Below, one piece after another: positions 8,495-8,535 of a DNA stretch of 41,778 nucleotides. The DNA is from a virus: UHGV virus genome UHGV-0176688; one strand, written 5' to 3'. How positions within the stretch are numbered: the first letter of the stretch is position 1; each line of letters starts with the position of its first letter. A program made the translations under genes and the position numbers. Below the pieces are notes generated by a model. The model did no database searches. It saw nothing but the letters and a program-made list of their open reading frames with translations, and was not told the origin of the DNA.

Positions 8495-8526
8495 TAACTT
8501 TAAATAATTGGCATTATTTAAAGTTA
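8495..8526. other. rox-type recombination site (lox family): 14-bp inverted arms around 4-bp core
   Basis: TAACTTTAAATAAT-TGGC-ATTATTTAAAGTTA; identical in reverse complement to the rox site I recall for phage D6 Dre; arms begin ATAACTT like loxP. Confidence 0.85.
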
Positions 8527-8535
8527 GGCTATAAT
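8508..8535 (+). promoter_or_regulatory. Sigma70-like promoter overlapping the rox site, reading toward the recombinase gene
   Basis: -35 TTGGCA (8508-8513), 16-bp spacer, -10 TATAAT (8530-8535). Confidence 0.4.

Follow-up and report, generated by a model that had tools for sequence, protein, structure and literature searches.

The question raised by this locus is whether a short inverted repeat upstream of a Cre-family recombinase gene is at once the target of the recombinase and part of the promoter of its gene, so that recombinase expression may be coupled to occupancy of the site, as had been suggested in an initial annotation of the 41,778-nucleotide stretch of viral DNA analysed here (UHGV-0176688, hereafter the window). 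Positions 8495-8526 read TAACTTTAAATAAT-TGGC-ATTATTTAAAGTTA, an inverted repeat with perfect 14-bp arms and a 4-bp spacer, which is present in a single copy and is the longest perfect inverted repeat of the 41.8-kb window; 0 of 100 shuffles matched it, even when up to three mismatches were allowed, and the maximum perfect arm found in 100 Markov-1 random sequences of matched composition was 11. The wild-type roxP sequence has been published as 5'-TAACTTTAAATAATGCCAATTATTTAAAGTTA-3' (PMC4777119), and the reverse complement of 8495-8526 agrees with it letter for letter. The homologous 32 bp of the immC record of phage D6 (AY753669, positions 4909-4940) are also identical and are annotated there as the 'region of crossover (rox) site for Dre recombinase'. 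The palindrome had been named as rox in reverse complement, and both matches bear this out; it is referred to below as the rox recombination site (8495-8526, no strand assigned). Comparison with about 50 related sites located upstream of Dre and Cre homologues was used to derive a common 13-6-13 frame, in which rox is written TAACTTTAAATAA-TTGGCA-TTATTTAAAGTTA and consists of a left arm (8495-8507), an asymmetric core, TTGGCA (8508-8513), and a right arm (8514-8526). The related sites combine arms of the type TAACTT[TC][AG]TATAA with a free 6-bp asymmetric core, and rox can also be read as 14-4-14 because the outer T and A of its core happen to be complementary. The next-longest inverted repeats of the window are two GC-rich perfect hairpins, AAAGCAGGCTTA-N5-TAAGCCTGCTTT at 30116-30144 and AAAGCCCACTT-N3-AAGTGGGCTTT at 35031-35055, which are probably bidirectional intrinsic terminators.

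The open reading frame that starts 152 bp past rox (8679-9707, + strand) encodes a Dre-type tyrosine recombinase of 342 residues, which aligns over its full length with D6 Dre with 331 of 341 residues identical (97%; 10 substitutions over the 341 aligned residues) and shares 41% identity with P1 Cre. Pfam PF00589 (Phage_integrase) was matched with an E value of 2.6e-17 (63.6 bits against a cut-off of 27.1) and residues 22-341 matched the crystal-structure chains of Cre in the PDB (E 1e-69), the copy searched containing Cre and its derivatives only and no solved structure of Dre. Residues R175, K202, H290, R293, W316 and Y325 correspond to the catalytic R-K-H-R-W-Y of Cre and are invariant across the family alignment, Cre included, confirming that a Cre-family recombinase lies downstream of the site. 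The locus also has the layout of Cre-like recombinases, in which the gene lies near a minimal inverted-repeat target whose core is asymmetric. From these matches, the identity of the site and the gene as rox and a dre allele is practically certain, and the 97% identity together with the identical site leads us to expect that this allele would recombine rox with rox and not lox with lox. According to the 2004 study by Sauer and McDermott, lox and rox are reportedly heterospecific. In P1, Cre and lox circularise injected, terminally redundant phage DNA and resolve plasmid-prophage dimers; by analogy, Dre acting on rox would circularise terminally redundant DNA after injection and resolve dimers of the plasmid-prophage.

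The surroundings of the site are those of D6. Megablast of positions 7000-10200 against phage records returned the D6 immC record AY753669 at 97.7% identity over the full length, and the complete D6 genome matched likewise; of the first 25 kb of the window, just 40% aligns with D6, at 94.6% identity. The carrier is a D6-like phage-plasmid, a relative of D6 and not D6 itself. It is matched best by plasmids about 92 kb long from E. coli and Salmonella. PLSDB contains the locus in 140 plasmids of about 90 kb, and among 5426 complete E. coli genomes 124 (about 2%) have it, with 123 of 126 places on plasmids. D6-like phage-plasmids are thus common in Enterobacteriaceae, and Dre/rox is a standard tool of genome engineering. 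The Dre/rox system of D6 reportedly goes back to the work of Sauer and McDermott in 2004 (Nucleic Acids Res 32:6086); the compact c1-rox-dre layout, like the site, the recombinase and their pairing, was known before, the carrier is an ordinary one, and since the locus is the published system, there is nothing new at the system level.

The core and the right flank of rox make up a predicted promoter. The predicted -35, TTGGCA (8508-8513, + strand; 5/6 positions), is centred exactly on the rox dyad and coincides with the crossover core, and the predicted -10, TATAAT (8530-8535, + strand; 6/6), lies 3 bp outside the right arm, separated from the -35 by a 16-bp spacer. The combination TTGGCA-16-TATAAT agrees with the sigma-70 consensus at 11 of 12 positions, is the sole promoter-like match within 8100-9000 and is the sole site of at least 11/12 on both strands of the whole window. 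A random sequence of window length contains 0.72 such sites on average, so that a chance site on the right strand in the 200 bp upstream of dre is unlikely (roughly 0.002 by our own arithmetic). The promoter is oriented to dre and lies 144 bp upstream of the ATG; assuming the usual 6-8 nt from the -10, transcription would start at 8541-8543 (+ strand), so that some 136 nt of leader would precede the dre ATG. Counted from a start near 8542, rox would extend from about -47 to about -16 and take in the whole -35 of the predicted promoter. The opposite strand of the core, TGCCAA, matches the -35 at 2/6 positions; because the core is asymmetric (TGGC vs GCCA), the -35 reads towards dre alone. A near-consensus promoter overlapping the site, with its -35 in the core and its -10 just outside, is therefore present at the sequence level as had been claimed, and is unique in the window. 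We consider it probable that this promoter is functional, and we regard it as the main promoter of dre, the core serving as the -35 of a sigma-70 promoter that would drive dre from the TATAAT 3 bp past the right arm. The searchable literature contained no report of transcript-start, reporter or footprint data for the rox promoter; Sauer & McDermott 2004 and Gilcrease & Casjens 2018, which lay outside that scope, may already describe it. The placement of a promoter in the core is, as far as that search reaches, a modest and apparently unreported regulatory detail. In D6 (AY753669, MF356679), the 32-bp site, -35, spacer and -10 are identical to those of the window and the intergenic DNA from c1 to dre is 98% identical; D6 differs in having a 3-codon mini-ORF that overlaps the dre start and is lost in the window by a change of ATG to ATA. 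This mini-ORF reads ATG GTT TCA TGA or ATG ATT ACA TGA in D6 (L001, about 5076-5095) and in the lineage with about 89% Dre identity, its stop codon overlapping the dre ATG; the corresponding position in the window is 8662-8681, where the start codon is ATA.

Conservation of the two hexamers was assessed among relatives of the locus. The -10 was retained in all D6-clade relatives examined that have a rox-type right arm, with the single-base variants TATAAC (L090/L091), which is without the critical final T, and TATGAT (L093). The 3-nt linker between the arm and the -10 varies (GGC, GTA, GTG, GGT or AGC), as do the bases after the -10, and outside the site no other element of the intergenic region is as stable as the -10. 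It was kept in lineages with flanks just about 78% identical and Dre homologues 64-100% identical; in those with about 78% flanks (Dre homologue about 89%, large resistance plasmids), the 32-bp site and TATAAT are identical and the linker has changed from GGC to GTA. Searching IMG/VR for the fixed arms with any core between them yielded 23 contigs, of which 21 have the core TTGGCA, one TTAGCA and one TGGGGA, and TATAAT follows 3 bp after the arm in 23/23. The TTAGCA core (L102, IMGVR_UViG_3300009011_000012, 3706-3737) accompanies a Dre homologue 69.5% identical, and with TATAAT kept its promoter still matches at 10/12 positions. The TGGGGA core (L109, IMGVR_UViG_2579778873_000001, 12405-12436) matches the -35 at 3/6 positions, with TATAAT kept, D6-like flanks and a Dre 97% identical to that of the window. 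Both may be natural heterospecific rox sites.

Across the lineages compared, the -35 was retained in most and replaced in three. The TTGGCA core persists down to a Dre homologue of 66% identity: in the Raoultella lineage (66%), the left arm has changed and TTGGCA-16-TATAAT is kept, and in Klebsiella variicola (70%), TTGGCA is kept and the -10 is TATAAC. In K. michiganensis (64%), the core is TGGGAG, with TATGAT or TATAAT at the -10 position. The lineage with a 56% Dre has the core TGTCAG and is without a -10 at that position; it carries another 11/12 promoter, TTTACA-16-TATAAT, in which the inner end of the left arm forms the -10. In outgroup sites whose arms are almost unchanged and whose core is TGGGAC, the bases at the -10 position are unrelated, indicating that both hexamers appear together in the D6 clade.

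The fixed core could equally reflect a need for core identity between recombining partners, and an explanation that builds on this, which we hold to be rather unlikely, accepts rox and dre as real and regards the hexamers as incidental or minor: the core would be fixed by partner matching, TATAAT would be a tolerated AT-rich flank, and dre would be transcribed mainly from elsewhere, for example from a conserved TTGACA element or by read-through. It gains from the poor -35 cores TGGGGA and TGGGAG, which weaken the -35 at otherwise intact loci and so indicate that a good -35 is dispensable in nature. It also gains from the finding that rox spacer variants recombine with themselves (PMC4777119), by which the sequence of the core is free as far as recombination is concerned. 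The TTGACA element (8555-8560, + strand) lies within CAGTRTTGACA, 29 bp downstream of rox; this block is invariant in L003-L007 and L090-L096 and is kept down to the 56% Dre lineage, deeper than the rox core. However, the element is missing in L102 and has no usable or conserved -10 partner, and a second promoter of standard type at this position was therefore rejected: the -10 candidate TCGAAT, 18 bp downstream, is without A at position 2, varies in close relatives (TCCAAT, TCGGAT) and has nothing alignable to it in distant ones. The rox promoter, in contrast, is the best sigma-70 match of the window and has no competitor within 8100-9000, and its -10, which lies outside rox and is unneeded for recombination, has stayed stable as its neighbours varied, which favours a real promoter.

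Other features of the leader were also considered. The TTGACA block of some relatives is directly preceded by one or two GATC (Dam) sites, recalling the Dam sites in the cre regulatory region of P1. A conserved RNA structure in the leader of about 136 nt was rejected (RNAalifold -1.7 kcal/mol, no covariation), as was a known RNA family, Rfam giving a chance snoRNA hit alone (E 0.86). A Shine-Dalgarno-like GAGG is located 12 nt from the dre ATG, and translation may therefore dominate the control of dre.

The locus was further compared with the immC regions of D6 and P1. The gene order lpa-pacA-pacB-c1-rox-dre-orf-orf-dut is common to the window and D6 AY753669 (where orf2 and orf3 precede dut). 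The c1-type immunity repressor gene (7247-8284, - strand; 345 residues) corresponds to the annotated c1 of D6 and is divergent from dre; its syntenic homologues carry PF27008 (Phage_P7_repressor_C1), and its product is about 17% identical to P1 C1. P1 shares with the window a homologous recombinase, an inverted-repeat site upstream of its gene, and adjacent c1 and pac genes; its lox is of the form 13-8-13 and differs in sequence from rox. In annotated P1, coi, imcB, imcA and several C1 operators occupy about 700 bp between c1 and lox, and cra about 420 bp between lox and cre, whereas in the window 210 bp separate the c1 start (8284) from rox and 152 bp separate rox from dre. Positions 8285-8678, between c1 and dre, contain no ORF longer than 33 aa, and tblastn with P1 proteins found no homologue of Coi, ImcA, ImcB, Cra or C8 in the whole window (Coi, ImcA, ImcB and Cra hits all at E values of at least 0.04), with PacB (56%), PacA, Lpa and Cre (41%) detected at their expected places. 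No hidden coi, imc or cra homologue was thus found, and the compaction relative to P1 that had been noted, with no coi, imcA or imcB between c1 and the site, is upheld by this alignment and extends to cra. The leader blocks TTTCGCGTAGCG and AGAGGTGAAA are common to P1 and the D6 type and precede cra in P1 but dre in the D6 type, so the D6 layout looks like P1 minus cra; the AGAGGTGAAA and TTTCGCGTAGCG blocks ahead of the mini-ORF suggest the remnant of a cra deletion. Sauer and McDermott reportedly described deletion and substitution in this region of D6.

The annotated cre promoters of P1 comprise P4cre, which is upstream of lox and ends 15 bp before it, and P3cre, P2cre and P1cre downstream of lox, none being embedded in the site; P2coi is located on the other side of lox on the opposite strand. 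The P1 region also has the C1 operator Oc1e, a LexA box and Dam sites, none of which is evident at rox in the window. A LexA box at rox was not found, as by eye no CTG-N10-CAG occurs in 8285-8680. Nor was a C1 operator found at rox, the candidate operator motif being located elsewhere with its nearest copy about 100 bp upstream of rox. This motif, GTTTTCTAAMAT, occurs in 6 copies in the window against 0.59 expected: an inverted pair of candidate C1 operators upstream of c1 (8302-8313, + strand, and 8385-8396, - strand), which does not overlap rox, and further copies at 21766-21777, 27005-27016, 27662-27673 and 39174-39185. It is kept upstream of c1 in relatives.

On their sites, Cre-type recombinases occupy both arms and part of the core. 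Two Dre monomers on rox would accordingly extend from -47 to -16 of the predicted promoter and should exclude RNA polymerase by keeping sigma-70 region 4 off the -35, and such occupancy would constitute negative autoregulation, holding the recombinase at low, self-limiting levels. Conversely, a polymerase on the promoter should keep Dre off rox and could hinder recombination. On geometry, this repression of the dre promoter by Dre is a serious possibility that we put slightly short of even odds, and for the reading as a whole, namely that rox and Dre are combined with a dre promoter embedded in the core and with autorepression, we would give a probability of roughly 0.45. The coupling of expression to site occupancy is favoured by conservation and geometry, but natural core variants that match the -35 poorly speak against its being strictly required. 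The promoter lies wholly within the core, the right arm and the right flank, and would therefore stay attached to dre after any exchange between rox sites. This fits the pattern seen among D6-like elements, in which similarity breaks at the left rox edge (about 8494/8495) and at least 7 unrelated left flanks adjoin homologous right flanks; their c1 alleles are 43% to 99% identical, with rox and dre kept. The break at the left edge is consistent with exchange of immunity modules at or next to rox.

Promoter-like elements were also surveyed at Cre-like loci in general. In most of 80 homologous loci (L010-L089), the site is located 100-250 bp upstream of the recombinase gene. Promoter-like hits in 52 dereplicated loci with a family-type site were scored by the offset of the -35 from the dyad; those on the recombinase-facing strand cluster at three offsets, about -28 (15), 0 (4, all from the D6 clade) and about +18 (14), and the opposite strand of the 52 loci gave scattered single hits with no clustering. 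A family-wide register at -28, in the left arm, was rejected, as it is not above chance by our own estimate: TATAAT is built into many sites, leaving just 3/6 positions needed in the -35. Only L095 stands out in this register: its promoter matches at 11/12 positions, and the -10 is formed by the inner end of the left arm. In the +18 class, xxGACA reaches into the outer end of the right arm and is followed after 17 bp by TAxxAT, a conserved block found at Pantoea, Erwinia and Mixta loci with differing sites; these loci are related to one another and hence do not represent independent events. The rox arrangement, on the dyad, differs from that of the surveyed relatives, in which promoter-like elements are at -28 or +18. 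Taken together, the survey suggests that placement of the recombinase promoter against the site is common in the Cre-like family. A broader proposal is that the core was recruited as the dre -35 and so fixes the polarity of recombination as well as which way transcription runs, that Dre throttles its own synthesis, and that the overlap arose independently in at least three registers across Cre-like systems (-10 in the left arm, -35 on the dyad, -35 abutting the right arm); we regard this proposal as conceivable though somewhat doubtful. If true, it would imply recurrent selection for occupancy-coupled expression of minimal tyrosine recombinases.

Placement in different registers at related loci would fit selection for coupling, and this bears on a further alternative, which we judge improbable: the rox promoter would drive dre without meaningful regulation by Dre, the protein being scarce or transient, and the overlap would be a by-product of compact packing. 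The short distances of the window, 210 bp and 152 bp where P1 has about 700 bp and about 420 bp, accord with it, as does the fact that P1 works with no annotated cre promoter overlapping lox. However, by established promoter mechanics, a protein over -47 to -16 is expected to hinder sigma region 4. The converse idea is that the coupling works mainly the other way: RNA polymerase at the rox promoter would block the binding or synapsis of Dre, or alter local supercoiling, and so time recombination by transcriptional state. It draws on the same geometric overlap and on P4cre and P2coi, which as annotated fire through lox from both sides and make cross-site transcription a family feature, but we give it little credence as the main direction of coupling; it would be compatible with autorepression and not exclusive of it.

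Autorepression by Dre would have a precedent in the Tn3/gamma-delta resolvase, which represses its own promoter by binding its recombination site, res, and for which repression has been demonstrated. The logic would be the same at rox by its geometry, in that the site overlaps the predicted recombinase promoter, core elements included, and occupancy would lower recombinase synthesis. The components differ: res is bound by a serine recombinase and has three subsites with accessory binding, whereas Dre belongs to the tyrosine recombinases, its minimal site measures 32 bp, and the predicted -35 falls within the crossover core itself. If the promoter is real, rox would be a clean natural case of a tyrosine recombinase whose minimal target doubles as an operator. 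It would also follow that rox, when used in bacteria, brings a 5/6 -35 box on its dyad in one direction, which could create an unintended promoter if placed 16-18 bp upstream of a -10-like sequence; natural core variants such as TGGGGA would weaken it. Cre-like pairs already in use as tools are VCre/VloxP, SCre/SloxP, Vika/vox, Nigri/nox and Panto/pox (PMC3082901, PMC3553980, PMC4957104), each of which, like Dre/rox, consists of a Cre-family recombinase and its own short lox-like target, with arms and cores that differ from those of rox. About 50 distinct lox/rox-like sites with varied 6-bp cores were found in Pantoea, Erwinia, Mixta, Rahnella, Xenorhabdus, Rouxiella, Chimaeribacter and others, their partners being uncharacterised recombinases of the Cre type with 41-55% identity to Dre; the dozens of recombinase/site pairs from the survey are candidate orthogonal tools.

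Two further observations concern the carriers of rox and the neighbourhood of dre. An identical rox, together with the Dre allele WP_054528934.1, about 89% identical to that of the window, was found in L003 (NZ_AP027761.1), L004 (NZ_CP049291.1) and L005 (NZ_AP025548.1), which are IncF/IncN/IncC/IncHI1B resistance plasmids of 145-183 kb in which rox and dre sit beside IS26, IS903B, TnAs1 and blaTEM-1; given the identical site, cointegrates between them and a resident D6-like phage-plasmid are conceivable in principle. In the window, a gene for a 225-residue protein (11104-11781, + strand), the C-terminal half of which matches Tad2-like (Thoeris anti-defence 2) PF11195 with an E value of 7e-23, lies directly 3' of the dUTPase gene (10595-11089) and is a possible anti-defence gene.
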